From positions 1 to 42,276 of the IMG/VR virus record IMGVR_UViG_3300045988_117550: a stretch of DNA of 42,276 nt. One strand, 5' to 3'. A program made the translations under genes and the position numbers. A model generated the notes under the pieces. It did not search any database. It was not told the origin of the DNA and saw nothing but the letters and a program-made list of their open reading frames with translations. The stretch comes from a virus. Below are positions 235 through 36,316 of this stretch, one piece after another; the first letter of the stretch is position 1, and each line of letters starts with the position of its first letter.

Positions 235-248
235 TTGTCGAACACAAA
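235..248 (+). promoter_or_regulatory. Conserved phage motif TTGTCGAACACAAA, copy 1, 22 nt upstream of the capsid ATG.
   Basis: One of nine copies of the same 10-14-mer, all oriented with the downstream gene. Confidence 0.5.
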
Positions 249-269
249 TTAAAATGAGGAAATTAAAAA

Positions 270-1160
270 ATGGGTAGAGTAGATGAGGCGTTAATTACGC
301 AATTTACCGACATCTGTCATCAGCAATCGCAACAGATTAAGGCTAGATTAAGACCTTATGTAAATGTTATCCCAATTAAAGGGGACGTAGCTACTTATGA
401 CGGTGTTGGAACTGTTGAAGCTAGAGAAATCTTAGGACGTATTCAACCTGTACAATTTACAGACATTGAACATTACAGACGTAAGATTACTCGTAGAAGA
501 TTTGAAGTAACTATCCCTGTAGATAGTTCAGATGTAAGAGGTATGCTTACAGATCCTCACTCTAAATACGCACAAGCTATCGTTATGGGTATTGAAAGAC
601 GTTTTGATAGATTGTGTTTAGAGGCAGCATTCGCTGATGTTTGGGTAGGTCGTGAGTTTGACAAAAAACTTACTGCGGTAGAGGACGGCGTTATGACAGT
701 TGACGCAACTTCTGGCTTAACTTATGAAAAGTTGCTTGAAATTAAGCAAAACTTTATTGACGCAGATGTTGGTAATGATATGCCAGAAAAATTCTTCTTA
801 GGTATTGCTGGTGATGAACATACTGACATGATGAACGAAACTAAGTTAATTAGTGGTGATTATTCAAGACAGTATGTAATTGATAAAGGCGAAATTCAAA
901 ACGCTTTGGGCTTTGACATTGTTAAGTACGCTGGAAAAGCTAAGAAACCAATGCTTAAAGTTGACGGCTCTGGTAACAGAGAATGTATTGCAGCGTCAAC
1001 AAGAGGTATTGTAGTTGGGGTAAGCCTAGCACCTAAGTTGTCAGTTGATAACAGACCTGATTACTACGAAACAGACCAAATTCAAATGATCGTTGAAATG
1101 GGTGCCGTTCGTACAGAGGGTTGTTTGGTACAAAAAGTTAAAACTACTGCGACTGCATAA
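270..1160 (+). CDS. Major capsid protein, T7 gp10-like.
   Basis: Position after portal and scaffold in T7 order. Local similarity to T7 10A (GEIQNALGFDIVKY vs GSIRNVMGFEVVEV). Strong SD. Confidence 0.6.
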   Translation: MGRVDEALITQFTDICHQQSQQIKARLRPYVNVIPIKGDVATYDGVGTVEAREILGRIQPVQFTDIEHYRRKITRRRFEVTIPVDSSDVRGMLTDPHSKYAQAIVMGIERRFDRLCLEAAFADVWVGREFDKKLTAVEDGVMTVDATSGLTYEKLLEIKQNFIDADVGNDMPEKFFLGIAGDEHTDMMNETKLISGDYSRQYVIDKGEIQNALGFDIVKYAGKAKKPMLKVDGSGNRECIAASTRGIVVGVSLAPKLSVDNRPDYYETDQIQMIVEMGAVRTEGCLVQKVKTTATA

Positions 1161-1204
1161 GTCGCTTTAGTTTTGCACACAAAAGGCATAGGAGAAAAAT
1201 AAAA

Positions 1205-1699
1205 ATGACTACTTTTGATAATTACGCAAACGACGAATTGCTGGCTGGTAAATCAGCAGAGGCGGTAAATGTAAGCGGTAATAAAGTTGTTCACATGATA
1301 CAAACCGTTAATATCGGAACAGAAGACGGAGCCGGTGCAATATACAGACTTTTCAGAGTTGGGGCTAACATGATCCCGCTAGAAATGAAAGTAATTTGCG
1401 GGGCTATTACAGGTGCGACCGATTGCGATTTAGGTATCTATGAAGAGGGTATCGGCGGTAAAGTTCTTGACGCAGATGTTCTAGCAGACGGTTTGACACT
1501 TGCTACTGCGGCTGGTATTGCGGCTCCGCTTAATGGCTTGAAGTCCTTAACTCTCGATAATCTTGGAAAAAGAATTTATGAGTTAGCGGGACACGAACGA
1601 AAAAATAAAGATACAGGTTATGACATCTGTCTTACCGCAAATGCAGCAGCTACCGCGGCTGGTAAAGTTGCCGTACTTGCAACATTCGTTCAAGGTTAG
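1205..1699 (+). CDS. Hypothetical virion protein (164 aa) between the capsid and tail tubular A genes.
   Basis: ORF with an SD (aggagaaaaataaaaATG), sitting in the structural operon. Confidence 0.35.
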   Translation: MTTFDNYANDELLAGKSAEAVNVSGNKVVHMIQTVNIGTEDGAGAIYRLFRVGANMIPLEMKVICGAITGATDCDLGIYEEGIGGKVLDADVLADGLTLATAAGIAAPLNGLKSLTLDNLGKRIYELAGHERKNKDTGYDICLTANAAATAAGKVAVLATFVQG

Positions 1700-1787
1700 A
1701 GATAAATCTGATGTGTATGTGGTGTACATGTTGATTGGTGGTAGGGCGTGCATTTGCACGCCTTATCCGTAATAAAGAGGTAGGATT

Positions 1788-2444
1788 ATGTCAAAGACTC
1801 CAGTAGATATATGCAACAAAGCCCTAGACCTATTAGGACAAGTCGCAGATATCGGGAATATCGAAACTCCGACAACAGACAACGAAAAAGTATGCGCGAG
1901 GTGGTATAGTGATACCCTCGGCTTTTTGCTACGTAGGTATATGTGGAATTTTGCCGTATGGAGTACAGAGTTACCAAAAGACTTAGTCGCTAAATATTAC
2001 GGGTATTCTGACGCGTATAAATTGCCGTCAGATTTTGTGCGTCTTGTTTCAATAGACGGCAATAAGGCACTTAATCTAATCGACTATAAACTAGCGGGCG
2101 GGTATCTATTCCTCAATGGTTATAGGGATAGTATCCATTTTGAATACATCAGACTTATTAAAGACGTTACGGAATATGACGAGGGCTTTAAGCAACTTCT
2201 TACGTTATATCTTGCTGCTAATATGGCTTTTAGGTTTACGAATAAGCAAACAGTCGTAGAAAGATTGTATAAAATGATTGAAGTTGAAGAGGCTAAAATT
2301 ATATCTATTGACGGTCAAGAACAACCGCCTACACGCATTCAATACTCAAAATACGGAAGAGCAAGACACGGCTATACAAGAAGAAACAACTTTATGACGC
2401 GTCCTGTAGAATTTGTAACGGAGGACGATAATGCCTCTAGTTAA
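1788..2444 (+). CDS. Tail tubular protein A (T7 gp11-like).
   Basis: N-terminal pattern N.AL..LG..I....D.....A..Y...FLL...W.F resembles gp11. Synteny. Confidence 0.6.
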   Translation: MSKTPVDICNKALDLLGQVADIGNIETPTTDNEKVCARWYSDTLGFLLRRYMWNFAVWSTELPKDLVAKYYGYSDAYKLPSDFVRLVSIDGNKALNLIDYKLAGGYLFLNGYRDSIHFEYIRLIKDVTEYDEGFKQLLTLYLAANMAFRFTNKQTVVERLYKMIEVEEAKIISIDGQEQPPTRIQYSKYGRARHGYTRRNNFMTRPVEFVTEDDNASS

Positions 2445-12384: not shown

Positions 12385-14280
12385 ATGTCAGTTCACAGTA
12401 ACGACAATAGCATTTTAAAAGCGTGCGGGACTCTTACACATTTTGAGTTTGGCTTTAAAGTGTTCAAAGACGAGGACTTAATTGTGTCGCTTATGGATCC
12501 GGGAACACAGGATTTGACACCACTTAAACTAAATGTAGATTATACCGTTAATATCAGTAGAATTGGGGACGGCGGATCTATTGAATTGAATGAAACGCAT
12601 AACGGATATAGTCTTTATGCTTACAGAAAAATCGAAATTATACAACCGCATGAAGTTCCAACAGAGGGGTATTTCCCAGAAAGTACAATCGAAAACGCTC
12701 TTGATAGGGGTATTATGATAGACCAACAGTTACAAGAGCAAATCAACAGATGTATTGCTATTCCGGGGACTTCTGGCTTTTCCGGGGTAAATGTTCAATT
12801 ACCCGTACCTAAAGCGGGTAATACGTTGGCCTGGAGTGAAGACAAAACGCACCTAGAAAATTTTGACGTAAAAGGTGCTAATGATAAGTTTAAAGCAGAT
12901 GTTAATACCTCTTTGGCGAATGCCCGTAGTGAGTTTACTACGCAAATTAGCCAGTTTGAAAGCTCAACCAATACGCAGATTAATAATTTTAAAAATGATG
13001 TAAACACACAAATTACAGAAGTATCAGAGGCCGCGGCTAAAATTAAAGAGTTAGAGGGGGCAGTACAAACGGCAGTAGAAAAGGCGAACGTAGCAACTAC
13101 AAAAGCTGAAACGGCCACAACCGCTGCTACTACCGCAACAGAACAAGCGGACAGAGCGAGTGAGATCGCAAACGAAATGAATAACAAATTTGCTGATATT
13201 GAGAGCTTTAAAAACTCTTTTCCAGCAGCCGTAAACCTTACTACACTCGCGAGATTAAATGACGGAAAGCTATATAATATCCCGTTTGATGATGTTAAAT
13301 CTGACGTTAACCAATTTATTAAATATGAAAGTACAGAAACTAGACGCTCATTGAGATTTAAAGCTAATACCTTTATTAAGTTGATAACAGAAACAGACAC
13401 ACGCCATTTTGTACTATGGAATGATTTAGTTATTAATGTGGAAGATTATTTAGACACAGGCTCCGCACTCATTAACGGTAAGGATTATAGTATTTTCTTA
13501 GTTCCAGACGGAGAGAAGAATGTCGCTATAAAAATCTCATTGAACAAAACCGCGCCTGTTGGATACGATACCGTTAATACCAGACGTATAGGCGGTTTCC
13601 ATACAGAGTGTGCAGACGTTGGAGTAGTACAAGCCGGTAACGAAATGAACAATTGGCTAGCGGGTGATATTATCCCTAATTCGGTTTGGACGTTATGGCA
13701 TAAACCTCTAATTGCTAGTCCGTCTGGTGCAAGATATGTTCCAGAGAGGGACGCATGGAAAACAATATATCACCAGTCGGGAACACTCAAAAATACAGTT
13801 TTTGAGTACGGTGCGACTCTTACACGTTCACGAAGTGCGTGGGATCATGAACTAGACTTAGGCCTAGTAGGTTGGGAGTTCCCAATGTCAATTGACTTTA
13901 CAATATCAGAGTTGGGAATCGTACCTTTAAAAGCCGTTGCGGGTAAAGCTGAATCGTCATGTATAAAAGCTGGTGGCTGGAAGAATGAAAATAATATTAG
14001 ATTAACAACTAGCGGCGGTGATGAAAGTACATGCGGTGGCTTGTGGACGATACTGCAAGAATACGGCCCATGTGGTGAGCAAGGTTGGAATGCGTCAGGT
14101 GTTAATACAATTACATCACCACGACAATACGGCTCAATTCAGCGCTTGTTGGGTGGCGGTGCTTGGGGTCACTCTGGTTACGCTGGTCCGTCTTCTCGTT
14201 GTGGGGCTGACTCGGCTCTGGATACGCGTGCGGATGTCGGTGCGTGCGGTTGGAGCCGTCCTTACCGACCTAGACAATAA
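12385..14280 (+). CDS. Tail fiber: T7 gp17-like N-terminal adaptor, coiled-coil shaft, and a C-terminal domain bearing the DGR variable region.
   Basis: N-terminal FEFGFKVF...L.VDYTV pattern. The C-terminal 113 nt is mutagenised relative to the TR. Confidence 0.8.
   Translation: MSVHSNDNSILKACGTLTHFEFGFKVFKDEDLIVSLMDPGTQDLTPLKLNVDYTVNISRIGDGGSIELNETHNGYSLYAYRKIEIIQPHEVPTEGYFPESTIENALDRGIMIDQQLQEQINRCIAIPGTSGFSGVNVQLPVPKAGNTLAWSEDKTHLENFDVKGANDKFKADVNTSLANARSEFTTQISQFESSTNTQINNFKNDVNTQITEVSEAAAKIKELEGAVQTAVEKANVATTKAETATTAATTATEQADRASEIANEMNNKFADIESFKNSFPAAVNLTTLARLNDGKLYNIPFDDVKSDVNQFIKYESTETRRSLRFKANTFIKLITETDTRHFVLWNDLVINVEDYLDTGSALINGKDYSIFLVPDGEKNVAIKISLNKTAPVGYDTVNTRRIGGFHTECADVGVVQAGNEMNNWLAGDIIPNSVWTLWHKPLIASPSGARYVPERDAWKTIYHQSGTLKNTVFEYGATLTRSRSAWDHELDLGLVGWEFPMSIDFTISELGIVPLKAVAGKAESSCIKAGGWKNENNIRLTTSGGDESTCGGLWTILQEYGPCGEQGWNASGVNTITSPRQYGSIQRLLGGGAWGHSGYAGPSSRCGADSALDTRADVGACGWSRPYRPRQ
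14142..14254 (+). repeat. DGR variable region (VR) at the 3' end of the tail-fiber gene.
   Basis: 113-nt alignment with the TR (offset 199). All 16 mismatches fall at TR adenines. Confidence 0.9.
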
Positions 14281-14290
14281 TAACCAATAT

Positions 14291-14307
14291 ATCCGTAATG
14301 TACGGAT
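14291..14307 (+). promoter_or_regulatory. Hairpin atccgta-atg-tacggat downstream of the VR, a candidate DGR target-recognition element.
   Basis: 7-bp perfect inverted repeat, 37 nt after the VR end. Confidence 0.4.
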
Positions 14308-14340
14308 AAACGAGATTACAAAGGTTATGAGTCTATTAGT

Positions 14341-14453
14341 GCGCTTGATAGGTGGCGGTAATTGGAATAACTCTGGTTACGCTGGTCCGTCTTCTCGTAA
14401 TGGGAATAACTCGGCTCTGAATACGAATGCGAATGTCGGTGCGTGCGGTTGGA
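14341..14453 (+). repeat. DGR template repeat (TR). AAY (Asn) codons lie at the variable positions.
   Basis: See the VR entry. The GC-rich 3' block ggtgcgtgcggttgga is identical in VR and TR. Confidence 0.9.
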
Positions 14454-14587
14454 TACGTAATGCAGCAGAAATGCTGCGGACGGCTGGACTCATACCCTTT
14501 CCCACTAGGGGAAAAACACACTACTTAAACGCCCTTTGTTAGTAGGGTACCCGAAAGTAAGGGGCGTTTTATCTAAAAAGGGACAAC
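14454..14587 (+). ncRNA. TR-RT spacer of the DGR RNA. It holds a GNRA-loop hairpin (14462-14477, gcagca-gaaa-tgctgc) and an 11-bp stem-loop (14527-14569) with a U-tail.
   Basis: Inverted repeats read from the sequence. No coding capacity. Confidence 0.45.
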
Positions 14588-17453: not shown

Positions 17454-17515
17454 AGTAATTGTAAAGGTTTCCGCACAACCTATTGAATTTGCTTAAAAAA
17501 TCGTCAATAATGGTA

Positions 17516-17529
17516 TTGTCGAACACAAA
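17516..17529 (+). promoter_or_regulatory. Conserved motif TTGTCGAACACAAA, copy 2, upstream of the holin gene.
   Basis: Exact 14-mer. Confidence 0.5.
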
Positions 17530-17548
17530 AAATCGTAGGTAGTAGGAA

Positions 17549-20124: not shown

Positions 20125-22157
20125 TTCCTATACCTCTCACCTATCCAGCCCTCTGCAACGATAGGACACGTAGTCGCCCATTCTGGAGTCGTACATAAAA
20201 GTTTTTCAAACTCTTTAACGTCCCCCGTCCCTTTTTTACAAGAGGCCACAACCTCATCATGCACAGTCATTCTGATTTTATAACCGTGTTTTTCAAGATT
20301 AAGCATGCCCCAGGCCATTAAGTCCCTAGCGGTTGCTTGTACTATGTTTTCCACGATAGCCCCGCCGTAAGTATGCTGACGTTCCAATTTACGCGTAACA
20401 GGGTTTTCAGCCATAAAGGTAAGTTGTTCTTTGATTTCGCCCCATTTCGTTTCAATAGGTTTGATAACAGGCTCACAATAAGCAATACATCTGCCAGAAA
20501 GTAATCGGCAATATAGAAATTTGCCCTGTACTTTCCACATAACGGGCCCCTCTTTAATAATTCGCCCTGCCTCTCTTACGGCTCTTATAGCTGCTCTTTC
20601 TTGGGCGTACCAAAATGCTACTACTTCTGGGTATGTTGCACGATATGTTTTTACAACCAGATCCGCCGTTTCTCTTGAAATATCTAAGCCCGTTTGTGTT
20701 TTTACTTGTGCCTTAAATCTATCCGGCCCCATTTGATAACCGCAACCCAAAACACCCGTCTTACCTAGTTGTCGTTCGTCTTTATCTTTTTTAGTAATCT
20801 TGCGTTTGTATATTTCAGAGGCAAGTTCACAATAAATGTCCGCCCCCTCTCTAAAAGCCTTTAGTCCTTTTTCTGCCCCAGCAAGCCATAAAACCACACG
20901 GGCCTCAATTGCAGAAAAGTCCGCGGCGATTAAGTCTTCCCCGTCCTCTGCTTTGATAAAGCCTCTAAGTGCCGTACTTATCGCGTCCACGACATTAGGA
21001 TATATAAACTCAAACGTATCGTAATCAAGAGTTTTTAAGTCCTCGATAACTTTGTCGCTATCATAAGACTTATCGCCTCGGGGAAAGTTCTGTACTTGTA
21101 TCCCCTTACCGCTCCAACGTCCGGTAGAGGCCCCGTGGTACATGAGAATATCGCGTATATTTCCGTCGGGGCATATACACAATTTCATTGTTTCCAGTTT
21201 AGATGTTGACGATTTACCCGCTTGTTGACGAATTTCTAATATTCTACGTATTTTAGAATCTGTACAGACTTTTAAATATTCCGTAATGTTCGTAGCGTTT
21301 AAGTTTGGTAGTTCCGTTTCGTCCACAAAGTCCCTGATGTATCGGGTGAGTTTTGCTACTTCCGTTGCTTTAGAAACGGCACCGCTAGTTAAATCAAGCA
21401 ACTCGTTATTGAGTTTATCCTTAAATATCGTTACGAATTTTATCGCTTTGTCTAACGCCGCTCTATCAATATTTACGCCCCTAGCGTTAATAATCTGGTC
21501 TAGTTTCCAAACTTCACGCTCTAGTGGGATAAGAGGCGGTAATGCGTTATCAATAGCTGACTCAACTACTACGTCTTGTTCGCAATAGTCATATAAAACC
21601 TTATAATCCTCCTCTTTATCGTTCCATATAGTCTTATCTTTCGCACTAATTTTTTTAGGCTTAGACATTTTCATCATTATTCTTTTACCGGTTTCATCTT
21701 TTTTTTGTGTAAGATGTAAAGCAATAGCACATTTCCCCAACGCTCTTGGTAAAGCGTGAGCAGCTGCCTTACTTGCCGTACATTCCCAACGGTTGAAGTC
21801 TTTTAGTTCCGGAAAACCGTAAGCCTTTGCCAGTATGTTATTCCACATGCAATACTCAAACATTGAGTTATGAGCAAAAAATCGTACGTCTTTGTTTTTT
21901 GCAAGATCAATAATTTTTTCTACTGCGATAATATCAGCTCGATCATCAGGATACACACAACTCATAATATGGTTATCGAACCAACTATTAAAAAGTTCTT
22001 TTGTTATAGTTGCGTGGAAAGTTTGCCCGTTAGGGTATTCAACTCGATAGCATAAGCAAAGTACGGTAGTTGAGGGGTCGAGGCTATAACGCCACGGCCC
22101 AACATCTACAACACTTAATACACTTCGAGTTTCAAAATCTAAGTGTACTTTTATCAT
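20121..22157 (-). CDS. Family A DNA polymerase with a 3'-5' exonuclease domain.
   Basis: DFET and YCEQD exonuclease motifs. Polymerase motifs DFSAIEARV, RQLGKTGVLGCGYQMG and VHDEVV. Confidence 0.85.
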   Translation of the reverse strand: MIKVHLDFETRSVLSVVDVGPWRYSLDPSTTVLCLCYRVEYPNGQTFHATITKELFNSWFDNHIMSCVYPDDRADIIAVEKIIDLAKNKDVRFFAHNSMFEYCMWNNILAKAYGFPELKDFNRWECTASKAAAHALPRALGKCAIALHLTQKKDETGKRIMMKMSKPKKISAKDKTIWNDKEEDYKVLYDYCEQDVVVESAIDNALPPLIPLEREVWKLDQIINARGVNIDRAALDKAIKFVTIFKDKLNNELLDLTSGAVSKATEVAKLTRYIRDFVDETELPNLNATNITEYLKVCTDSKIRRILEIRQQAGKSSTSKLETMKLCICPDGNIRDILMYHGASTGRWSGKGIQVQNFPRGDKSYDSDKVIEDLKTLDYDTFEFIYPNVVDAISTALRGFIKAEDGEDLIAADFSAIEARVVLWLAGAEKGLKAFREGADIYCELASEIYKRKITKKDKDERQLGKTGVLGCGYQMGPDRFKAQVKTQTGLDISRETADLVVKTYRATYPEVVAFWYAQERAAIRAVREAGRIIKEGPVMWKVQGKFLYCRLLSGRCIAYCEPVIKPIETKWGEIKEQLTFMAENPVTRKLERQHTYGGAIVENIVQATARDLMAWGMLNLEKHGYKIRMTVHDEVVASCKKGTGDVKEFEKLLCTTPEWATTCPIVAEGWIGERYRK

Positions 22158-22714
22158 GCGAGAATATCCCCCATGATGTCTGCCTCGTCGGTAACTGCCT
22201 CACCAGCAAATGCAGCAAAGTCATTCTCTGCGGTTGCTCTTGAAGATAAAGGCTCGCCGTCTTTTACTTTCATAAGGTTTTGAAGTCCGAAAGAAACACC
22301 TTTACCACCGCCCTTATCATAAGCGTAAGCCGTTAGTGTTGCTCTCATATAACAACCACTATATACTTCGCTTGGATCCATAATAGGTTGTATAAGAGCA
22401 TTCACTACACCCGGAGGGGCGATAGTAGTTTTTGCGTTTGCTACAAACTTGTCTTTGTCTTCCGGATACTTTTCTGTGTCCCCCGCGTTACCGTCTTTAA
22501 GCGGTAATTTTAAGCCTCTTGGCGGATTACTGCCCCATTTATCGGCAATAGCCTCTTTAATGATAGCTTTTAAGTCCGATAAATCAGCGTCTTTATCGAA
22601 TATCATTTTAATAGAATACTCGTCTTTTCCGCTTTGTTCGTTTTTTCTTGGTGTAAATACGTACACAAAACTTGCTCTGAATACAGGCGTAACAATTTTT
22701 CTTCCATTTGCCAT
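22154..22714 (-). CDS. ssDNA-binding protein candidate with an acidic C-terminal tail.
   Basis: Position upstream of the polymerase. C-terminal DEADIMGDILA. Confidence 0.45.
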   Translation of the reverse strand: MANGRKIVTPVFRASFVYVFTPRKNEQSGKDEYSIKMIFDKDADLSDLKAIIKEAIADKWGSNPPRGLKLPLKDGNAGDTEKYPEDKDKFVANAKTTIAPPGVVNALIQPIMDPSEVYSGCYMRATLTAYAYDKGGGKGVSFGLQNLMKVKDGEPLSSRATAENDFAAFAGEAVTDEADIMGDILA

Positions 22715-22740
22715 GGTTTTTTCTCCTTTTTCTCTGTTTT

Positions 22741-22753
22741 TCTGTTCGACAAT
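22741..22753 (-). promoter_or_regulatory. Conserved motif (TTGTCGAACAGA on the minus strand), copy 4, upstream of the SSB/DNA polymerase operon.
   Basis: Motif match. Confidence 0.45.
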
Positions 22754-22762
22754 TTGCTATTT

Positions 22763-24070
22763 TTACAGTCCTAAATCTTCAAGATTTTGGAAGTCCGCAA
22801 TAGCTGACGGTGTTTGTTTTTCTCTTTGGTCTTCTTCTCTTACGAGAACATTTTTGCCCTCTGGCCTAAACCAATAATTTGTTAAAAGTTCTTTTGAGCC
22901 TTTAATCATTTTTTCGACTTGCGCCGGAGTTTTTAGAGTCTTAGTAAATAGGCTATCATAATCAGCCCCTAACTCTAATTCTAGCATTGAGGCTATGTTT
23001 TCGTCGGTATCGTTCCATTTTCTATGCGTTTTAGTGGACTTAACGAGTTTATAGCCCTCAATAGTTTTACCGCTTTCCAGTAGCTTTTCTGCGTAAGTCT
23101 TAACTTCCTTAATATAATTTTCCAATAATTCCGCGTTATCAAGAAATAGTTTAAGTTCCTCCTCGGTTAATTCTTGCGGAGCTTTTATTCTATTTTCGCT
23201 AACGGGTTTTTGAAAATCTATCTTAGCAAGTTCATAAGACTTATCACGCATAGCTGGACATATTAACTTTGCGGTACAAAAACGGCACCATTTACCGGCG
23301 CATGTATTAGCATTAGGGTTTCTTGTTTCCGCGATACGTTGCTTTAATTCTTCTTTGAATTGTGCAACATATTCCGGAGTTGTTACCCAACGACGGACAG
23401 GGCCATTAGAGTGGTTTGCTCTTGGTTGGACGATAACAAGCTCAATGTTTTTAAAGCTCATTAGCTTATCACCAGCTGCACCGATAGCATAGTAAAGCAT
23501 TTGTTTATTCTCTACCGCCTCAACAGGAATACCGGCGCCATACTTAAAGTCATAAACAATAAGCGTTTCGTCTGGGACAAATATAGACGCGTCGTTAGTT
23601 CCTCTTGCGTCAGAGTCAACGTCTGTTAGTTGAAAATCTTTTTCTATATTCGTCCATGGCTGATAAGGTTTTTCTCTCGTTGCCTTATCTAAGGCCTCCC
23701 ACGCATTAGGTAATCCCGTTGTAGGGTTTTTTCTTATAGAGTTTTCAATAGTGCAACCGATACGCTTAATGTCTTCAAGAATAGTATCGACATATAAATT
23801 TACGGCGTCTGCCATTTCGTCTGTTACTTTGAAAACAAAATCGTCAGCCTCTATGCTTTCCCCGATCATGCTGGTAGCGTCCCATTTGCAACCGTGAGCG
23901 ATTTTATTGGTTAGGACTTTTTCGCATAATTCATGTGCCGCGGTCCCCTCCGCAGCGAATTTTGAGGGTGCCGCCGGTGGGAGTTTTGCCATTAAGGCAT
24001 TACTCCCCGGACAGTTCCACCAACGCTCACAAGAGGACGCACCTACTTTACTGTGAAATACTGGTGGCAC
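22763..24070 (-). CDS. PD-(D/E)XK nuclease, DUF2800/Cas4-like, with a C-terminal Cys cluster.
   Basis: N-terminal SSCERWWNCPGS. C-terminal C..C...C Cys cluster. Confidence 0.7.
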   Translation of the reverse strand: MPPVFHSKVGASSCERWWNCPGSNALMAKLPPAAPSKFAAEGTAAHELCEKVLTNKIAHGCKWDATSMIGESIEADDFVFKVTDEMADAVNLYVDTILEDIKRIGCTIENSIRKNPTTGLPNAWEALDKATREKPYQPWTNIEKDFQLTDVDSDARGTNDASIFVPDETLIVYDFKYGAGIPVEAVENKQMLYYAIGAAGDKLMSFKNIELVIVQPRANHSNGPVRRWVTTPEYVAQFKEELKQRIAETRNPNANTCAGKWCRFCTAKLICPAMRDKSYELAKIDFQKPVSENRIKAPQELTEEELKLFLDNAELLENYIKEVKTYAEKLLESGKTIEGYKLVKSTKTHRKWNDTDENIASMLELELGADYDSLFTKTLKTPAQVEKMIKGSKELLTNYWFRPEGKNVLVREEDQREKQTPSAIADFQNLEDLGL

Positions 24071-25914
24071 TATGCAGCCCTCCCTAAGCTATTAAGTTCA
24101 GTAACAACTGCCTCAAATTTTTCTTGTGGGATTTCTGTAACTTTAGAGCAATTATATTTAGCTAAAATCTCTTTTGCTTTTGCTACAGACGTATTTCTAT
24201 CTTTGCTATATCTAGCAATAAATTGGCTGAATGCGGTTCTTACGTCGTCTTGCGTATAAACTCTAGCCGGTTCTGGTACATTTTCAACTTCTGCCATGAA
24301 GTCGTCAACATCAGTAGTAACAGGCTCAACAGGTTCAGCCTCAACAACCGGTGTTGACTCTACTGGTTCTGCTTTTTTAGTTGCGGCTTTTTTAGTTGTT
24401 TTCTTTTTAGGTTCTTCTTTTGGCTCTGTAGCACAAGAGTTACAAGCTAATTCAGCCGTGCTTGCAATTCCGATCATAGCGTTTTGAACTTCTACTAATT
24501 TTTCTAAAGAGTTCGCAATTCTTTCTAAATTTTCTTCAATTGTCATGTCTTTTTTCTCCTTTTCTTTTTTCATGTTCGACACTATACTCTCATTTGTTGA
24601 GATTAATTTTTCTATAACCTTTTTCTTTTTTATAACCGACTGTAGCATGTTGTCCTCTAATGTGTCCGGTACAACTAAGTAATGTGCAACAACCGGGTTG
24701 GTTTGCCCTATACGTCGTATTCTATCACGGGCTTGGTCTATGTTTCCCGGTACCCAGTCAATTTCTGCAAATACTACATGGCTTGCGACTTTTTGTAATC
24801 CGTCAACGCCAAAACCCGCCGCCGTGTATTGCCCTACAAAAATATGACTGTTGGGATCTGAAACAAATAAATCTACTTCCATTTGCTTTAATCGAGACGT
24901 AAGCCCACCGGCAACAACTCTTACACCGTAGCCTTTTAAGTCTTTTCGGATCTTGTCAATAACTTCTCTATGGTAAGCAAATACTACTACTTTTTGTTGT
25001 GTTAAGAGCAAATTACGTAAGTAATCTGTTACTTGAGGGAGTTTTGCAAGTCCTAAAAGTCTTCTAGTTGTTGCCTGTATGCCTAAATCGCTATTTTCGC
25101 TAAATTCATTAGCGTTTTCGTATAATTCTTGCTCATTATTTAAAACGTGTTCTATTTCCGGAGTCAATTCAAGCGGTATAGTTTTTTCAATTAAAGGCGG
25201 TAGTTCTTTTAAAACTTCGTCTTTGGTACGTCTTAACATAAAAGGCTTAATCTTCTCTGCGAGTTCATCTATATTAGACGCCCCTTTATCATTTAAAGCC
25301 CCATAGCTATCATAATACGCGCCGCAATACCTTTGAGCGTAAGCCTCATAGCTCGTATATGGCTCAATACAATGCGGAGCAAATACTTTTAGCATTATGA
25401 AAAAATCTTTTGGACGGTTTCTAACTGGAGTACCAGTTAGCAAATATGCTCTTTTAGCCCCTCTAATAATTCCAAATTGTGTATCATAAACGGCTTTTGT
25501 TCTCTTTGCGTCGCTATTAGACAATACATGAGCCTCATCTAATATAACCACGTCATAATCTAAGTCGCGTAATTGTTTACGAATTTCTTTATATATAACT
25601 AAATCATAATTACAGATAATAACATCAGCGGTTTTGTCGATTTTATCCGCTACGTGCAAAACAACTTGGCATTTTAAATCGTTTCTAATCCAACTTTTTA
25701 GCTCTCTTTCCCAATTGAATTTTAATGTAGCAAGTGTAAGAATTAAAGCTCTTTTGCACTTTAATTCTTTTATAACCGTCGCTGCTTGGACGGTTTTACC
25801 TAGCCCCATATCGTCCGCTAGTAATGCCGTTTTTTGGCTTGTCATAAATTTTACGCCTGTTTTTTGAAAATCTTTTAACTGTTTCATCTGTTTCCCTGTT
25901 TTTCTGCATTTCAA
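24070..25914 (-). CDS. SNF2-family helicase with a low-complexity K/E/P-rich C-terminal region.
   Basis: LADDMGLGKT and VILDEAH motifs. Confidence 0.85.
   Translation of the reverse strand: MKCRKTGKQMKQLKDFQKTGVKFMTSQKTALLADDMGLGKTVQAATVIKELKCKRALILTLATLKFNWERELKSWIRNDLKCQVVLHVADKIDKTADVIICNYDLVIYKEIRKQLRDLDYDVVILDEAHVLSNSDAKRTKAVYDTQFGIIRGAKRAYLLTGTPVRNRPKDFFIMLKVFAPHCIEPYTSYEAYAQRYCGAYYDSYGALNDKGASNIDELAEKIKPFMLRRTKDEVLKELPPLIEKTIPLELTPEIEHVLNNEQELYENANEFSENSDLGIQATTRRLLGLAKLPQVTDYLRNLLLTQQKVVVFAYHREVIDKIRKDLKGYGVRVVAGGLTSRLKQMEVDLFVSDPNSHIFVGQYTAAGFGVDGLQKVASHVVFAEIDWVPGNIDQARDRIRRIGQTNPVVAHYLVVPDTLEDNMLQSVIKKKKVIEKLISTNESIVSNMKKEKEKKDMTIEENLERIANSLEKLVEVQNAMIGIASTAELACNSCATEPKEEPKKKTTKKAATKKAEPVESTPVVEAEPVEPVTTDVDDFMAEVENVPEPARVYTQDDVRTAFSQFIARYSKDRNTSVAKAKEILAKYNCSKVTEIPQEKFEAVVTELNSLGRAA
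24571..24583 (-). promoter_or_regulatory. Conserved motif (TGTCGAACATG on the minus strand), copy 5, inside the SNF2 ORF. An SD plus in-frame ATG follows at 24546.
   Basis: Motif plus aaggagaaaaaagacATG downstream. Confidence 0.4.
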
Positions 25915-25923: not shown

Positions 25924-28038
25924 TTATTCAAGCCCTAAAGCACTTAAAGACATATTAGGTAATCTGAATGCGTTTGTCGTCTTTGCCTGTTTCTTATGGT
26001 AAAATTTGCCTTTTTCCCAGCCTAATTCTTTTACCATGATATGCGCAACACGGCTTAATTCTCTATTAGTCGTACGGCTTACCGTTATGCCGATACATTC
26101 TTCAAGAATTTCGCGACTTGTTACAACAGTTCTAGCCGCCCCTAATTCTAGGTCCGGTTTAGCTAACCAATCTTTTATAGGTTCTAGCCATGGATCCTGT
26201 TGTCTTCGTTTTTCTGTTTCTTCGTGTGCAATTCTCGCTATATCGTCGTCTAAATACAATTTTTCACCTCTAAAATATCTGTCGCACGCCTCCGCTAGTA
26301 ATTGTTCGCGTGCGGCTTTTAAACCCTCAATATTAACTTTTTTACACGTAACGGGCCAAAAACGTCTATTGCCTGTAACGTCTTTTAGGTATCCGCTACC
26401 CTCTTCGGGGTTGATAGTACCGATAAAGATACTTTGTCTTGGGTAATCCTCCGCATTTCTACGGTATGCAAGTCTTACACGATCAGTAGTTTTAGAAAGA
26501 AAAGACTTTAATTTATCTGTGTCAACTTTTCTACTACATACCATTTCTGATACTTCAATAATCCAATTTCCGCGCATAGCGTCAATAGTATCTTTATCGC
26601 TATCAGTTATTGAAACGTCCCCGTACCACTCACCGCCTAGAATATTTACAAGTGTACTTTTACCAATACCCTGCTCACCCTCTAAAACAAGCATAGTATC
26701 GAATTTAATGCCCGGATTAAATACTCGGCCAACCGCCCCAATAAGGACTTTAGCCCCTACGGCTCTTGTGTATGCGTTATCATCAACACCCGCAAAATCT
26801 GAAAGCCATGTATCTAAACGGCTTTTCCCGTCCCATGTAATGCTTTTTAAATAATCTCTTACGGGGTGATACCTAAACTTTTCAGCGGCAATAATAGCCG
26901 CCTCTTGGCATAACGGCGTAGAAACATTAAAAAATCTTACGCGACTTAACCAGTATTTAAAATTAATAGCGTCGGAATCAGTCCATGAGCCTAATTTTTT
27001 GCCGTTATGCCATGGCGCCGGTTTTACAAAAGTTATATCGTTTGTAAAATCGTTGTATTTAAGTATCCCCAAAAACGGATAGTCTTTGCATAACAAATAA
27101 TTTACGACATTACGGATTGTAGGCTTAATGGCATTGTTTTTATCAATGTCCCATATAAGTTTTTCAACGTCTTCCCCGACTTCGTCCTCGTCCATATCGC
27201 GGAATTGAGCAAAGTCGTTAGCTGCTGTGTTTTTTCCCACTTTATCAGCATTATAGGCATAGGCGTTATGTACTTTTTTCTTTAAGTCTTCAAGTTCCCA
27301 CTCTGGTTGGCAGCGAATATTCCAATATTCCGACATAAGCTCAAAAGTTTTCATTTCTGATAATGCCAAATCTCTGCCACGGCAAGCGGTTTTGAATGTT
27401 GTAATGTCGCCGCCCTCACCCTCAATAGCCGCTGGTGCGGTTTGCAAATATGTTATATACCTTTTTACATTCTGCTCTTCGTCAGAAAAGTCCATTTGCT
27501 TTTCTGCGAGTTCTATTTCTTGTCTTTTAATAGCATTGAGTAAGGTTTCCGGGGCTTGTATAGGTTGAAATGCGTTATTCTTTACCTCGTACGCTTTCCC
27601 TGTGTCTGGGTGAATACTACCAGCACCTACAACTTGTTGGCCAACGCTTTTAAATTCTATTCCGGGATATTCTTTTAAAGCGTTCCTTACCGGAATATCA
27701 GCGGGCTTTTTGAAATATATGTGTAGCCCATTCCCACCAGTCTTTACAACAAAAGTGTCTTTTGAAGAAAAATGTAGATCCGCGAAAAGTTTTAATAAAA
27801 CATTTTCGTCCTTTGGAAACCTGCGCGGATCTACGTCAACGATTAAGTCATCACTACGTAATACTACCCCGTAGTTCCCCTCAAAATCACATGCTTGTAT
27901 TAATGGATCATATTCAGTTTTTACCCAGTCCTTTATTGTCGGAATTTTACCATTGAGCGGTGTTAAAGTGTAGCCCGCGTCAATGTAACCCTCTATAAGA
28001 CTTTCCCTACTTAACATCACTATCCGGCTGCTCCACAT
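25924..28038 (-). CDS. DNA primase-polymerase (prim-pol) fused to a D5/P4-like P-loop helicase.
   Basis: Prim-pol DVDPRR region. P-loop EGEQGIGKST. Confidence 0.8.
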   Translation of the reverse strand: MWSSRIVMLSRESLIEGYIDAGYTLTPLNGKIPTIKDWVKTEYDPLIQACDFEGNYGVVLRSDDLIVDVDPRRFPKDENVLLKLFADLHFSSKDTFVVKTGGNGLHIYFKKPADIPVRNALKEYPGIEFKSVGQQVVGAGSIHPDTGKAYEVKNNAFQPIQAPETLLNAIKRQEIELAEKQMDFSDEEQNVKRYITYLQTAPAAIEGEGGDITTFKTACRGRDLALSEMKTFELMSEYWNIRCQPEWELEDLKKKVHNAYAYNADKVGKNTAANDFAQFRDMDEDEVGEDVEKLIWDIDKNNAIKPTIRNVVNYLLCKDYPFLGILKYNDFTNDITFVKPAPWHNGKKLGSWTDSDAINFKYWLSRVRFFNVSTPLCQEAAIIAAEKFRYHPVRDYLKSITWDGKSRLDTWLSDFAGVDDNAYTRAVGAKVLIGAVGRVFNPGIKFDTMLVLEGEQGIGKSTLVNILGGEWYGDVSITDSDKDTIDAMRGNWIIEVSEMVCSRKVDTDKLKSFLSKTTDRVRLAYRRNAEDYPRQSIFIGTINPEEGSGYLKDVTGNRRFWPVTCKKVNIEGLKAAREQLLAEACDRYFRGEKLYLDDDIARIAHEETEKRRQQDPWLEPIKDWLAKPDLELGAARTVVTSREILEECIGITVSRTTNRELSRVAHIMVKELGWEKGKFYHKKQAKTTNAFRLPNMSLSALGLE

Positions 28039-28222
28039 ATTTATTCGCTATTGCTAAAGAGTCCACTTTTTCTGGATCGAAATACCAATTATCATCAACC
28101 CACTTTACGGCTGGGACTTTTCCTGTTCTTGCGAAATGACTCCATGCGGAACGTGTACCGCCTTTAAGTTCTGCCATTTCAGAAGACGAATAATGTGTAA
28201 CGCCGCTAATAACTCGCGCCAT
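28007..28222 (-). CDS. Small protein, possibly DNA-binding, first gene of the replication operon.
   Basis: ORF with an SD (ggaggtagagagaATG). Confidence 0.35.
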   Translation of the reverse strand: MARVISGVTHYSSSEMAELKGGTRSAWSHFARTGKVPAVKWVDDNWYFDPEKVDSLAIANKYVEQPDSDVK

Positions 28223-28253
28223 TCTCTCTACCTCCGAAAAGTTAAATATTCTA

Positions 28254-28267
28254 TTGTGTTCGACAAT
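28254..28267 (-). promoter_or_regulatory. Conserved motif (ATTGTCGAACACAA on the minus strand), copy 6.
   Basis: Motif match. Confidence 0.5.
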
Positions 28268-28352
28268 ATAGGCTAATAAACCTATGTGTATTATTATCCA
28301 CGCTAATAAAGTTTTGTCAAGTATTATAAGTAAACTTTACAAAACTTTAATA

Positions 28353-31559: not shown

Positions 31560-31991
31560 CTAATCGTCTTCAAAATTAAAATCTTGTAAATCTTCGAGTA
31601 ATTGAACTAACGGCTCTATGTAATACCTGTTTAAGTATTCCCATTTGTCAACATCTGGCGGGGAACTTTCAAAACGGTTAATATAATCTATTTTATTTAA
31701 AAACTGTTCTAGCGGTTCATAATCTGGGAAGCTTTCGCCGCTAATAAGATTCTTATATTTTGCGTATTGGCTAACCTCTTGCGGCATGTTCCCGTTCCAT
31801 TTGCTCTGTTTTTCAACCTGTACCGAAAAATTGCTATCGCGTTCTACTTCTTGAATTAGTCCCAAAATAACCGCGTTTGTGTTGTTGTCCCCGTCCTCAA
31901 AAAGTTTTTCCCATTCTCGGCCCGTGCATAATGAGTTTTTAACTCTAAAAATTGCCTCTTCAATCATTCCTTTTTGCTTTTTTGTAGTCAT
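31560..31991 (-). CDS. Hypothetical acidic protein.
   Basis: ORF. Confidence 0.4.
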   Translation of the reverse strand: MTTKKQKGMIEEAIFRVKNSLCTGREWEKLFEDGDNNTNAVILGLIQEVERDSNFSVQVEKQSKWNGNMPQEVSQYAKYKNLISGESFPDYEPLEQFLNKIDYINRFESSPPDVDKWEYLNRYYIEPLVQLLEDLQDFNFEDD

Positions 31992-32134
31992 TATAAAATA
32001 CCCTCTTCAATACATATTTGTAAATTCATGTAATCGTCTTGTATTTGTTTTAGCTCGTTTCTAGCATTTGCATAACTTACGCATTGGCACCCGATAACTA
32101 TTAATAAAATTAAAATAAAAAAATTCTTTTGCAT
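31991..32134 (-). CDS. Unlisted 47-aa lipoprotein-like ORF: MQKNFFILILLIVIGCQCVSYANARNELKQIQDDYMNLQICIEEGIL.
   Basis: Hand-translated. Lipobox VIGC. TAATG overlap with the next gene. Motif copy 7 lies 30 nt upstream. Confidence 0.4.
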   Translation of the reverse strand: MQKNFFILILLIVIGCQCVSYANARNELKQIQDDYMNLQICIEEGIL

Positions 32135-32161
32135 GTGGCGTTCCTCTTTCGTTTTTCTTTT

Positions 32162-32175
32162 GTATGTTCGACAAT
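32162..32175 (-). promoter_or_regulatory. Conserved motif (ATTGTCGAACATAC on the minus strand), copy 7.
   Basis: Motif match. Confidence 0.45.
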
Positions 32176-32178
32176 TTT

Positions 32179-33275: not shown

Positions 33276-33294
33276 TTTTTAAAATCCTTTCCGG

Positions 33295-33321: not shown

Positions 33322-33323
33322 GT

Positions 33324-34040: not shown

Positions 34041-34058
34041 GTCGTCCTCACTTTCTTT

Positions 34059-34232
34059 TTATTTGTTTTTGTAATAACTGATATTTAAAATATTTTCTTT
34101 TTTACTGAAATTTATAATACATTCCCGGAGGAAGTCCGCCGCGTTTATATCCGTTCGGCCCGTTGGCGTTACTATGGAAATATTAAAGCGGTCTATTTGT
34201 TTAATTAGCTTTTTTAAATTAGTTTTTTGCAT
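34059..34232 (-). CDS. Unlisted 57-aa ORF at the 5' end of the leftward early transcript. Possibly spurious.
   Basis: Hand-translated. No SD. The ATG lies inside motif copy 8. Confidence 0.2.
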   Translation of the reverse strand: MQKTNLKKLIKQIDRFNISIVTPTGRTDINAADFLRECIINFSKKENILNISYYKNK

Positions 34233-34240
34233 TCGACAAT
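34229..34240 (-). promoter_or_regulatory. Degenerate motif copy 8 (TTGTCGAATGC on the minus strand).
   Basis: Partial match. Confidence 0.3.
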
Positions 34241-34244
34241 TATT

Positions 34245-34269
34245 CCTTATGTTTACATTCTAAACGATA
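34245..34269. promoter_or_regulatory. Operator repeat 1 (acattctaaacgataccgtttaaaa; palindrome TAAACG-atac-CGTTTA). It sits in the spacer of a leftward sigma70-like promoter: TTGACT (34275-34270), 17 nt, TAGAAT (34252-34247).
   Basis: 25-bp exact direct repeat. Hexamers and spacing read from the sequence. Confidence 0.55.
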
Positions 34270-34316
34270 CCGTTTAAAAAGTCAAGTATATAGTTAAGAA
34301 TATCGTTACAAATCTT

Positions 34317-34345
34317 AATAATAATATTGACATTCTAAACGATAC
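34317..34345 (+). promoter_or_regulatory. Rightward sigma70-like promoter: TTGACA, 17 nt, TAAAAT. Operator repeat 2 (34320-34344) lies in its spacer. It drives the HTH regulator gene.
   Basis: Consensus hexamers with a 17-nt spacer. The repeat is exact. Confidence 0.55.
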
Positions 34346-34398
34346 CGTTTAAAATAAGTATTGTAAATGGGTATTTTTGCCCGGAAAGTGAGGACAAC

Positions 34399-34638
34399 AT
34401 GAAATCTATTACAAGCCCCGACAGAGCAAAGGAAATCGAAAACCAGCTACGCGGTGTTATTGCTGCTAGTGGGCTGAATGCTACACAATTAGCGGACTTA
34501 ATAACGCAAAAATGCGGGCGTCCGGAAAGTGTTCAAAGTTTTTCACAAAAACTTAAACGCGGTTCTATTAAATACGCGGAAGTTTTAGAAATCGCGGAAT
34601 TATTAAATTTTGAATTAGTATGGCACAAATTAAAATAA
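34399..34638 (+). CDS. XRE/Cro-CI-like HTH transcriptional regulator (79 aa).
   Basis: GLNATQLADLITQKCGRPESVQSFSQ HTH pattern. SD gtgaggacaacATG. Confidence 0.7.
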   Translation: MKSITSPDRAKEIENQLRGVIAASGLNATQLADLITQKCGRPESVQSFSQKLKRGSIKYAEVLEIAELLNFELVWHKLK

Positions 34639-34648
34639 TTATAAAACA

Positions 34649-34668
34649 CGCGGGGAATTGTCCCCGCG
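34649..34668. terminator. Bidirectional terminator cgcgggga-attg-tccccgcg.
   Basis: 8-bp perfect stem, T-rich on both sides. Confidence 0.7.
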
Positions 34669-34888
34669 GTTTGTTTAATGAGTCCGACAGTATATAAAAG
34701 TTAATATATTAAGTTTTCAATGTTCGGGCGGGAATTAGCTCGCCGTGTGCTTTTCTGCTACTTTGTGCATATTGTCCGCCCGATTAGTTATCGTTTATTA
34801 TCGTTTATTATCGTTGAATTTTAAAATATATTGCGTTAATATGTAAGTAACCACGAAAAGCGTATAAGGCGCATGCCTTTTCTCGTTT

Positions 34889-34902
34889 TTTGTGTTCGAC
34901 AA
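34889..34902 (-). promoter_or_regulatory. Conserved motif copy 9 (AAATTGTCGAACACAAAAAA on the minus strand), pointing into a 220-nt noncoding stretch.
   Basis: Motif match. Confidence 0.45.
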
Positions 34903-34993
34903 TTTTATTGTACGTCTGGCCCGCTGGGGCTTGGCGTACTTTTCTTTTTTGTTATGAATCTAAATAATAAAATAGCGCAAAGTCATATACAAA

Positions 34994-35075
34994 CGGATTA
35001 CAACCGATTATAAATAACTTTGCGCTTACTTCTTTTGTAATGTTTGCTATTGTTAGCCGGATTAAAACCGATTAC
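34994..35075. repeat. Four C(C/G)GATTA sites arranged as two pairs, 10-11 bp apart within each pair.
   Basis: Read from the sequence. Confidence 0.35.
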
Positions 35076-35237
35076 GCCAAACGCTAACAAACACGCAATT
35101 TATTTTATTATTCAATTTATAACACAAACATTATATAAAATGCGCGGTTTTATGTCAATACGCTTATGAACTTTTATAAACTTATATAAAGCATATTTAC
35201 AAGCGACGCGGCGGGGCATTTGAAACGATAAAAAAGT

Positions 35238-35390
35238 CCTTACCCTCTTACCCTTATAATTTTATTTTGTGGGTAAGACTAAAAGTAAGTATATATTACA
35301 TTTATTTATAAATCTTAATAATTAAATAATCTTACCTATGTATTGGGGTAAGAATGACTAAAAAGGTAAGATAAAAGGTAAGACTAAAAA
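35238..35390. repeat. Iteron cluster with seven GGTAAGA cores: four direct copies of GGTAAGA(C)TAAAAG and three inverted copies of TCTTACC. Candidate origin of replication.
   Basis: Read from the sequence. The flanks are AT-rich. Confidence 0.5.
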
Positions 35391-36049
35391 GCCCCTAAAA
35401 TCAGTATTTTATACTATAATCTTCCATATCTTACATATAATTATATTAAATATATTATAGTAATATGGTATTTTATGGAGTATATACAAATAATTTACTT
35501 TTTTTGTAAAAAAATTTTTTTGTGTTTTTTGGGGTGAGATGTGTAAGAGAATTTTTGAGGCTAAAAAGCGGGATATTTTTTATTTGATTTAAAATTTTAA
35601 ATCTTTGTAGCTGGTTTACTCAAAAAATAAAATTTGCTCTCGCGTGTTTGTAGTTTAAAAATTTTTTTGCCCTGATTTACTCCGATTTGTGAAAGTCTTA
35701 TTTTTATATATTATGTATATCTTATTTTATATATTGTTTTCGTGTTATCATGTAAGCGTCGGAAAGTTGCTAACGCTAAAAGGCGATTTAAGACACTTGA
35801 AACCTATTAAAATATATTTTTTGTACCCTCTCGGGCTTGTTACATAATTTTTATTATGCGTACATAACGAAACGATATAAATAAAAGCCATAAACCTTTC
35901 AGGGCTTGCCTTTTGCTTTTTATATCTATGATATGTATTTAATTATTAAATGGCTTGAAACTCAATAGCCGTAAGGCTTTACAAGTTTTTATGTTGATGT
36001 GCAAAAATAAAATGCATGAGCCTGCGCACTCTGACAGTTAAAAAATGCC

Positions 36050-36135
36050 GAAACGCGAGGGGGCCCCCTTACTTTTGGCCCCATAGCGACCCCGTGGCCC
36101 CGCGTCCCTCTGACGGGTGGGGACCCCTCTGTCTT
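36050..36135. other. GC-rich island with a GGGGGCCCCC palindrome and G4/C4 tracts, set within AT-rich noncoding DNA.
   Basis: Composition contrast and a 10-bp perfect palindrome. Confidence 0.4.
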
Positions 36136-36302
36136 TTAAGCCTCCACAATTTTTGAGGATAACTAGACTATGGACTTAATAAAAAAAATACCCACAGAAA
36201 ATTTTTAGATTTTATTGTTACGATAATAAACGCAACTCAAACAAACTTAAAAAAATATTGCGAATGAACTTAAAAAGTTGAATAATGAAAATAAAATACA
36301 AT

Positions 36303-36316
36303 TTGTCGAACACAAA
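36303..36316 (+). promoter_or_regulatory. Conserved motif TTGTCGAACACAAA, copy 3, upstream of the first + arm gene.
   Basis: Exact 14-mer. Confidence 0.5.

Follow-up and report, generated by a model that had tools for sequence, protein, structure and literature searches.

A 19-base signal precedes nine gene blocks in the genome of a podovirus-like phage

The IMG/VR virus record IMGVR_UViG_3300045988_117550 (positions 1 to 42,276; below called the window, i.e. the whole stretch of 42,276 nucleotides (nt) that was analysed) carries a 19-base signal, AATTGTCGAACACAAAAAA, ahead of nine gene blocks. The 10-nt motif TTGTCGAACA occurs in seven exact copies, compared to a mean of 0.09 and a maximum of 2 in dinucleotide shuffles of the genome; two near-copies on the minus strand, GTGTCGAACA at 24573 and TTGTCGAATG at 34230, bring the total to nine. 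An initial annotation of this DNA had proposed that the motif recurs at nine operon starts and is followed by an A-rich run, and both proposals are borne out, an A-run being present downstream of all nine copies. The motif is real, strongly non-random and conserved. Our leading interpretation, which we hold tentatively and at slightly less than an even chance, is that it represents a phage-specific promoter core read by the host RNA polymerase (RNAP) together with an unrecognised phage factor.

Placement and conservation of the motif

Scanning of both strands showed that the 7-mers GTCGAAC and TCGAACA are present at the motif sites only. Non-coding DNA makes up 10.3% of the genome, yet it holds eight of the nine copies, and all nine are co-directed with the surrounding genes; thus, the motif is not equally frequent inside genes or on the wrong strand. 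Its presumed distance of 20-40 nt to the ATG applies to seven copies, which end 22-34 nt before the start codon. The other two, both on the minus strand, have no open reading frame (ORF) within 180 nt: the copy at 34230 lies 189 nt from the next gene, and that at 34893 heads non-coding DNA. The initially assigned minus-strand positions were off by 1-4 nt. Nearly always, the motif is the last conserved element ahead of the Shine-Dalgarno (SD) sequence, from which it is separated by the A-run.

For comparison, two relatives were rebuilt completely or almost so and a third to ~85%, and partial loci of seven further sequences were included. The core GTCGAACA(C)A with its A-run is found at 8-14 sites per complete or near-complete relative, ahead of orthologous genes. 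The capsid proteins of the relatives share 75-96% amino acid (aa) identity, and the DNA flanking the motif sites has diverged to ~65-75% identity. In 66 distinct site contexts, the information is concentrated in one contiguous 19-nt block, spanning -4 to +14 relative to the G, with the consensus aaTTGTCGAACAcAAAAAa and at least 11 highly informative contiguous positions; these contexts contain no conserved position upstream of -5 and no -35-like partner at any fixed distance. Two distant members of the wider group, MW202485.1 and the L063 contig, lack the motif, and a search of MW202485.1 for an equivalent repeat revealed one intragenic tandem repeat only. In unrelated IMG/VR viral contigs the 16-mer occurs as single, mostly intragenic copies, that is, as chance matches. 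The absence from the distant members, together with the chance nature of the matches elsewhere, points to an invention that is peculiar to this phage clade. Searching the literature for the motif sequence returned primers only.

Several known types of site were considered and dropped. The motif includes the Gram-positive LexA half-site CGAACA, but the full GAAC-N4-GTTC box is absent, and the LexA box was rejected. A Chi-like site, a primase recognition site and an enhancer complementary to 16S rRNA were discarded as well, for some of them on the ground that the copies are confined to intergenic positions at gene starts.

The three plus-strand copies precede the capsid gene, the holin gene and the late arm. 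Copy 1 (231..251, TTGTCGAACA at 235-244, followed by the A-rich run) ends 25 nt before the capsid ATG (270) and is kept ahead of the capsid gene in all relatives. Copy 2 (17512..17532, motif 17516-17525) is located 23 nt before the holin ATG (17549), with a -10-like AATAAT ending 6 nt before GTCGAACA. Copy 3 (36299..36319, motif 36303-36312) lies 22 nt before the ATG at 36335 of the first late-arm gene (201 aa).

The remaining copies are on the minus strand. Copy 4 (22736..22756, motif 22743-22752) precedes, by 28 nt, the ATG of the gene for an Enc34-type single-stranded DNA-binding protein (SSB; 22154-22714). Copy 5 (24566..24586, the variant GTGTCGAACA at 24573-24582) resides inside the SNF2 ORF, 26 nt before an in-frame ATG (24546). 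This ORF (24070-25914) continues in frame into a 158-aa protein (24070-24546) that is a separate gene in all relatives; the two are fused in the window because the stop codon has been lost, and the internal motif, SD and ATG have been kept. Copy 6 (28250..28270, motif 28257-28266) is positioned 34 nt before the ATG of a gene for a 71-aa winged helix-turn-helix (wHTH) protein and the primase operon, and copy 7 (32158..32178, motif 32165-32174) precedes a 47-aa lipoprotein ORF, with 30 nt between the motif and the ATG. Copy 8 (34223..34243), the degenerate TTGTCGAATG at 34230-34239, is found at ~+13 of the early-left sigma70 promoter, the gene 189 nt downstream being of ArdC-N/DnaJ type. Copy 9 (34886..34906, motif 34893-34902) is followed by a hairpin, a conserved ACGCTTTTCGTGGTTA box, three AACGATAAT iterons and a terminator (34649-34668).

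Some of the genes behind the copies have features of their own. The 47-aa ORF directly behind copy 7 (31991-32134, minus strand) is unannotated and bears a lipoprotein signal with the lipobox VIGC. An acidic stretch is present in both the 201-aa (36335-36940) and the 158-aa (24070-24546) proteins; within this stretch, the 201-aa protein and the 158-aa homologues of the relatives have a conserved DDLLG-type motif, which reads DDFMA in the 158-aa protein of the window. The DDLLG-type motif may be a common docking motif for one partner.

Host-type promoters and terminators around the motif

At least five copies (those of the capsid, holin, late-arm, primase and early-left sites) are immediately preceded by a conserved sigma70-type promoter, whose -10 is 6 to ~110 nt away from the motif. 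As it reads, the initial annotation confined such promoters to 34247-34345 and stated that no sigma70 spacing fits; neither view can be upheld, because conserved promoters with good spacing precede the copies at 235, 17516, 28257, 34230 and 36303. At those five sites the motif is therefore part of a predicted host-type transcript, and transcription of the genome does not require an orphan polymerase.

The late-arm promoter, TTGCGA-17-AATAAT (36258..36286, plus strand), corresponds to TTGATA or TTGAGA with TATAAT in the relatives, and its -10 is separated from GTCGAACA by 12-27 nt. The capsid promoter, TTGACG-17-AATAAT (98..126, plus), is conserved in 8 relatives; between it and copy 1 lies a conserved, structured 5' leader (135..234, plus) of ~110 nt with three to four hairpins, in which 6 of the 21 predicted pairs show compensatory changes. 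Immediately next to copy 2 is the holin promoter, TTGAAT-17-AATAAT (17483..17511, plus), and a -10 ending 6 nt before GTCGAACA is seen at the holin gene in three lineages (window, g208 and g490). The late promoters have a common upstream element, AACT-N6-AACTT-N3-AAA. On the other strand, the promoter of the primase operon, TTGACA-16-GATAAT (28293..28320, minus), is conserved in 6 genomes and is followed by a 5-6 bp hairpin with compensatory changes (~28268-28285) and then by copy 6; these changes were read from the sequences themselves, the MAFFT alignment being out of register.

The early-left promoter, TTGACT-17-TAGAAT (34257..34285, minus), contains a palindromic operator, AAACG-N4-CGTTT, in its spacer, and copy 8 lies 19 nt downstream. 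The same operator is found in the spacer of the promoter TTGACA-17-TAAAAT (34327..34355, plus) of a 79-aa repressor-like gene (34399-34638), which has no motif. A 40-nt unit is present in duplicate within 34240-34354, and as a result each of these divergent promoters beside the 79-aa gene has the palindrome AAACG-ATAC-CGTTT in its spacer. The equivalent switch palindromes differ among the relatives, whereas the motif is invariant; judged from the sequences, the operator differences look like immunity divergence.

The motif itself does not constitute a sigma70 hexamer: GTCGAA is without A2 and T6 of a -10 element, and TTGTCG fails as a -35 because the start would fall beyond the ATG, given the gap of 22-34 nt. 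It is very improbable, in our estimate, that the phage has borrowed the promoter of a host alternative sigma factor of the extracytoplasmic function (ECF) or sigma28 type. TGTCGAA resembles the ECF -10 core TGTCAAA, GTCGAACA loosely resembles the sigma28 -10 GCCGATAA, and a reader encoded by the host would agree with the invariance seen across phage lineages. However, the 66 site contexts have no -35 partner (GGAAC or TAAA) at a fixed distance, so that the site does not qualify as an ECF promoter; a sole host factor would leave the lytic genes of a prophage uncontrolled; and the 16-mer is limited to single chance copies among the unrelated viral contigs scanned.

Terminators were identified by direct reading of the sequence, the automatic finder having been too strict and having missed known hairpins. 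They occur on both sides of the motif. In at least five lineages, a copy is found 15-22 nt past the T-run of a long terminator hairpin at the locus of the non-coding RNA and putative origin, and in g072 a copy lies 12 nt past a terminator, ahead of the holin gene; no sigma70 -10 or -35 is present between these terminators and the motif copies. Conversely, in three lineages (g072/L050, g208 and g490/L048) an intrinsic terminator, consisting of a GC-rich hairpin and a T-run, separates the motif from the first late gene. The late-arm leaders of L029, L050, L030 and L031 contain a strong terminator; it has been lost (36312-36335) in the lineage of the window, along with L049 and L027.

This second arrangement is central to an explanation that we regard as quite possible, if less than even: the motif could be a promoter-proximal leader element that acts after initiation, rendering RNAP resistant to termination, or a signal for processing, stability or translation of the mRNA. 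Transcripts that begin at the upstream sigma70 promoters, or read-through transcripts, would include the element, which would be read in non-template DNA or nascent RNA, similar to RfaH/ops, lambda nut and qut or HK022 put. Wherever an arm or operon begins, a sigma70 promoter is found upstream, and the full motif falls inside the predicted transcript despite the variation in distance from 6 to ~110 nt; it is also nearly always the final conserved element before the SD. The order of sigma70 promoter, motif, hairpin with T-run and first late gene in three lineages follows the logic of lambda PR'-qut-tR', and a terminator in this position calls for antitermination. A run of at least 11 contiguous, highly informative positions fits recognition of a single strand, be it non-template DNA or RNA. 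The copies just past strong terminators argue in the opposite direction: having no promoter of their own, they would rarely be transcribed, and yet they are conserved. Furthermore, known ops, nut and qut elements occur once per operon, in contrast to 8-14 copies per 42 kb, including mid-operon ones, and profile searches found no NusG-like, N-like or Q-like protein. A purely translational role is opposed by the copies that head non-coding DNA, and a version in which the motif acts like a start-associated repeat close to the SD is weakened by the intervening A-run.

A possible promoter core and its reader

If the motif is a promoter core, the following sequence of events can be envisaged. The element aaTTGTCGAACAcAAAAAa would be used alongside the host sigma70-type promoters, and host RNAP carrying a phage-encoded specificity factor would recognise the contiguous block, probably on the non-template strand once the bubble has opened, GTCGAA taking the place of the -10. 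A purine of the A-run 6-8 nt further on may serve as the start, so that leaders would be 14-28 nt long and bear the SD. In this manner, the motif could boost or re-start transcription before the capsid, holin, SSB, primase, terminase-arm and early genes, and it may also fire into the iteron-bearing, origin-like region. We infer the role as a start signal, the position of the start, the use of host RNAP and the existence of a phage factor.

Several observations are in line with this promoter. The terminator-abutting copies with no sigma70 promoter in between fit an element that is autonomous, and since the copy at 34893 and its orthologues head non-coding iteron DNA, the element is not tied to translation. 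Copies within long operons before highly expressed genes (SSB, capsid) may parallel the internal promoters of T7 and T4. Judged by its sequence profile, the contiguous block would match the footprint of a bubble-read or single-element promoter, its size being that of the single-stranded region of an open complex, unlike an operator with two half-sites. The initial proposal of a phage-specific middle or late promoter therefore stands in part: the copies are conserved, locked in orientation, placed at gene starts, specific to the clade and, in some cases, next to terminators, but a dependence of the operons on the motif for want of host-type promoters is not supported, as sigma70 promoters precede at least five copies.

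The evidence is not uniformly in favour of a promoter. A second promoter is not required at the five or more copies that are already transcribed from sigma70-type promoters, and a plain promoter does not explain why, in three lineages, a terminator separates the first late gene from the motif. GTCGAA is not AT-rich, unlike most -10 elements. In addition, no protein expected to read such an element was recognised. Pfam, PHROGs and NCBIfam scans covered nearly all ORFs of at least 60 aa, and profile searches against PDB the 1650-aa virion protein and three small conserved proteins; none of these searches revealed an RNAP, a sigma factor, a NusG-, N- or Q-like protein or a known activator, so that the initial statement that no RNAP or sigma factor is recognisable holds at the level of sequence profiles. 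The 1650-aa protein, with no PDB or Pfam match, was rejected as a virion RNAP, having no catalytic aspartate motif of the DxDxD or DxDGD type; its appearance, which includes a coiled coil, is that of an ejection protein. The promoter is thus our leading hypothesis and not a finding, because the data fit a leader element acting after initiation equally well.

The two functions could also reside in a single factor. One small phage protein outside the sigma, Q and NusG families might read the 19 nt as single-stranded non-template DNA, starting transcription without a -35 or -10 and antiterminating at the terminators of the late promoters; we consider this combination unlikely.

Among the phage proteins, three were considered as candidate readers. 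We rejected the 184-aa protein (16905-17453), which occurs in phages only, among them one unrelated and one distant phage, both of which lack the motif. The 5' part of its gene contains a cluster of TGTCATGA(CA) palindromes (16950-17060), translated as 'SCH' repeats, and its well-conserved C-terminus is replisome-organiser-like; homologues are located beside lysis genes in other phages. Because of the palindromes and this C-terminus, the protein is more likely to be a replication initiator whose gene would hold an internal origin. Likewise, the 79-aa repressor was dismissed as a binder of the motif, since it has its own palindromic operators in promoter spacers, which diverge between lineages; because these operators diverge and the motif does not, the reader is expected to be a conserved component rather than the immunity repressor. 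The third, the 71-aa winged-helix protein (28007..28222, minus strand), is present in all relatives behind a conserved sigma70 promoter. Its single-sequence model (pLDDT 67) yielded weak Foldseek matches (E ~0.2) to MerR N-domains, BldC and excisionase, and on this model it is a candidate DNA-binding partner. The model of a 143-aa protein (pLDDT 51) was unusable.

A regulator of this kind could also bind the motif as double-stranded DNA. According to this explanation, which we judge improbable, the motif is the site of a conserved phage regulator, e.g. the 71-aa MerR/excisionase-like wHTH protein, and would serve as an orientation-dependent roadblock or operator that lies downstream of the sigma70 promoters and silences or tunes them. 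The asymmetric, dispersed, intergenic and co-oriented copies downstream of sigma70 promoters would suit such a site; the phage possesses a repressor-type switch, relatives are found within a 2.0-Mb chromosome and a 219-kb contig of metagenome-assembled genomes (MAGs), and the small wHTH protein is encoded in all relatives behind a conserved sigma70 promoter and a motif copy. Immunity sites, however, would be expected to diverge as the switch operators do, whereas the motif is invariant. It also forms one uninterrupted block and not the patches, spaced by the major groove, that are typical of HTH sites; copies past terminators that head non-coding DNA have nothing to block; and the 71-aa protein has been assigned to its fold on weak grounds (pLDDT 67, Foldseek E ~0.2).

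Parallels in known phage systems

Phage-specific promoters come in two well-known forms. The late promoters of T4, TATAAATA, consist of a -10 element only and are recognised by gp55 together with gp33 and the gp45 clamp. The motif shares with them a single short element that lacks a -35 and is present in many copies near genes, often in tandem with host-type promoters; T4 leaders are short, and the T4 system employs host RNAP with small, hard-to-recognise factors, as proposed here. The -10-only architecture is compatible with the contiguous block, the start site being a putative one in the present case. Unlike the T4 element, the motif, whose sequence is unrelated, is not AT-rich and is longer (~19 nt including the presumed start region). 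Homologues of gp55, gp33 or the clamp were not found in the profile searches, which very divergent small proteins could escape, and the phage differs from T4 in its presumed Melainabacterium host and in being podovirus-like and probably temperate.

Promoters of the T7 group comprise ~23 bp and are read by a single-subunit RNAP. The structural gene order of the window is T7-like, with a portal of the T7 type (PF12236), and the motif agrees with the T7 class in being a contiguous element (19 nt, in the class of ~20 bp), present 8-14 times per ~40-kb genome before replication, capsid and lysis genes and inside operons, and in having a conserved stretch in the presumed initially transcribed region. 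In contrast to T7, no single-subunit RNAP of the PF00940 type was found, the element is shorter, and host-type promoters are present throughout, also ahead of the late genes. The virion RNAP system of N4 and crAss phages does not apply: the 1650-aa protein is without the catalytic motif, and the motif forms only a 3-bp TGT/ACA stem versus the N4 stem of 5-7 bp with a 3-nt loop.

Elements acting after initiation have also been compared. RfaH/ops and qut/nut are, like the motif, orientation-specific, located in leaders downstream of sigma70 promoters and conserved contiguously, and a terminator comes next in three lineages. They differ in that the motif has many copies per genome and per operon, some of them mid-operon or past terminators, and in the presence of SD sequences; promoters lie upstream at five sites or more, and the profile scans show that the phage encodes no NGN/KOW protein. 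The binding element of Q and AlpA is situated between the -35 and the -10, and a -10-like pause inducer lies in the initially transcribed region (PMC9371919). This geometry is not matched by the motif, located 6 to ~110 nt downstream of the -10, a mismatch that also speaks against the leader explanation, and no Q-like protein was found.

Dispersed repeats provide the last comparison. The stoperators of L5 follow the immunity repressor, and P1 has dispersed asymmetric C1 operators. The motif is unlikely to belong to the stoperators; here, the switch operators differ by lineage and the motif is invariant. The start-associated sequence (SAS) of Cluster K phages is a 13-bp repeat that lies 3-7 bp from the start codon and contains the SD (PMC3203893). 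Both SAS and L5 stoperators resemble the motif as asymmetric repeats of 13-19 bp that are dispersed, intergenic, present in one orientation near gene starts and kept across sub-lineages, and for SAS, too, the reader is unknown (PMC3203893). SAS is thereby a precedent for unexplained repeats at gene starts and, as such, lends support to the leader explanation (PMC3203893). The motif, however, ends 22-34 nt before the ATG, apart from the SD, and also heads non-coding DNA, and it is not a member of this family.

The phage, its host and the meaning of the signal

Bases 1-119 of the window are repeated at 42158-42276, and the window is therefore a circularly assembled genome of 42,157 bp, with a G+C content of 38.6%. 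It is a podovirus genome carrying a T7-supergroup structural module, in the order terminase, T7-type portal (PF12236), scaffold, capsid, tubular proteins, internal virion proteins (149, 182, 533 and 1650 aa) and fibre. The other arm contains genes for ArdC-N/DnaJ-like and Dam-like proteins, a C5-methylase and a dATP/dGTP diphosphohydrolase, and further for a Prim-Pol/VapE primase, an SNF2 helicase, a DUF2800 nuclease, the Enc34-type SSB and a family A DNA polymerase. Megablast of 25 kb of the genome against GenBank phages gave zero matches, and the closest deposited portal, that of the distant relative MW202485.1, is 37% identical. No tRNAs are encoded in the genome, and Rfam searches at the gathering threshold, as well as at a relaxed threshold on 34600-36340, returned nothing meaningful.

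The region 34640-36300 is a 1.65-kb AT-rich non-coding stretch, probably an origin/control region. A consensus promoter (35158-35130, minus strand) and the long hairpin with a T-run to which it leads (34961-35039) may specify a small RNA; in addition, repeated AATCGGTTTTAATCCG elements, the three AACGATAAT iterons (~34780-34815) and a conserved GC-rich block (36040-36140) are found. At 12385-16030, the genome harbours a diversity-generating retroelement, composed of an Mtd-like tail fibre (PF21916) with the variable repeat at 14142-14259, a template repeat at 14341-14458 (85% identical to the variable repeat) and a reverse transcriptase gene (14588-16030); an avd-like gene was not seen between the two repeats.

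The close relatives are found in IMG/VR, in pig-gut assemblies (as contigs of ~42 kb) and in MAGs labelled Gastranaerophilales, Melainabacteria or Vampirovibrio. Two of them are part of Melainabacteria MAG sequences far exceeding the phage: L049 (CP091731.1, a 2.0-Mb chromosome) and L050 (CAJTLG010000002.1, a 219-kb contig). The MAG names and these two long sequences make a gut Melainabacterium the most likely host and a temperate lifestyle probable. No integrase was recognisable in the window, and prophage ends were not seen; judging from synteny with L049 and L050, the attachment site would have to lie between 8.8 and 29 kb of the window. A literature search on Gastranaerophilales phages yielded nothing relevant, and we know of no work on gene regulation in phages of these uncultured gut Melainabacteria.

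The present analysis defines a sharp 19-nt cis-signal that is invariant across lineages ~25-30% apart at the DNA level, and it corrects the idea that the late genes of this genome lack host-type promoters. The signal may be used to recognise this phage group in metagenomes, to delimit transcription units and to fish for the reader by oligonucleotide pull-down or co-variation. If the motif is merely a secondary promoter or a leader signal, it would be a useful annotation and an ordinary phage feature. If its reader turns out to be a new sigma-like or antiterminator protein, it would represent a new family of factors that redirect RNAP.

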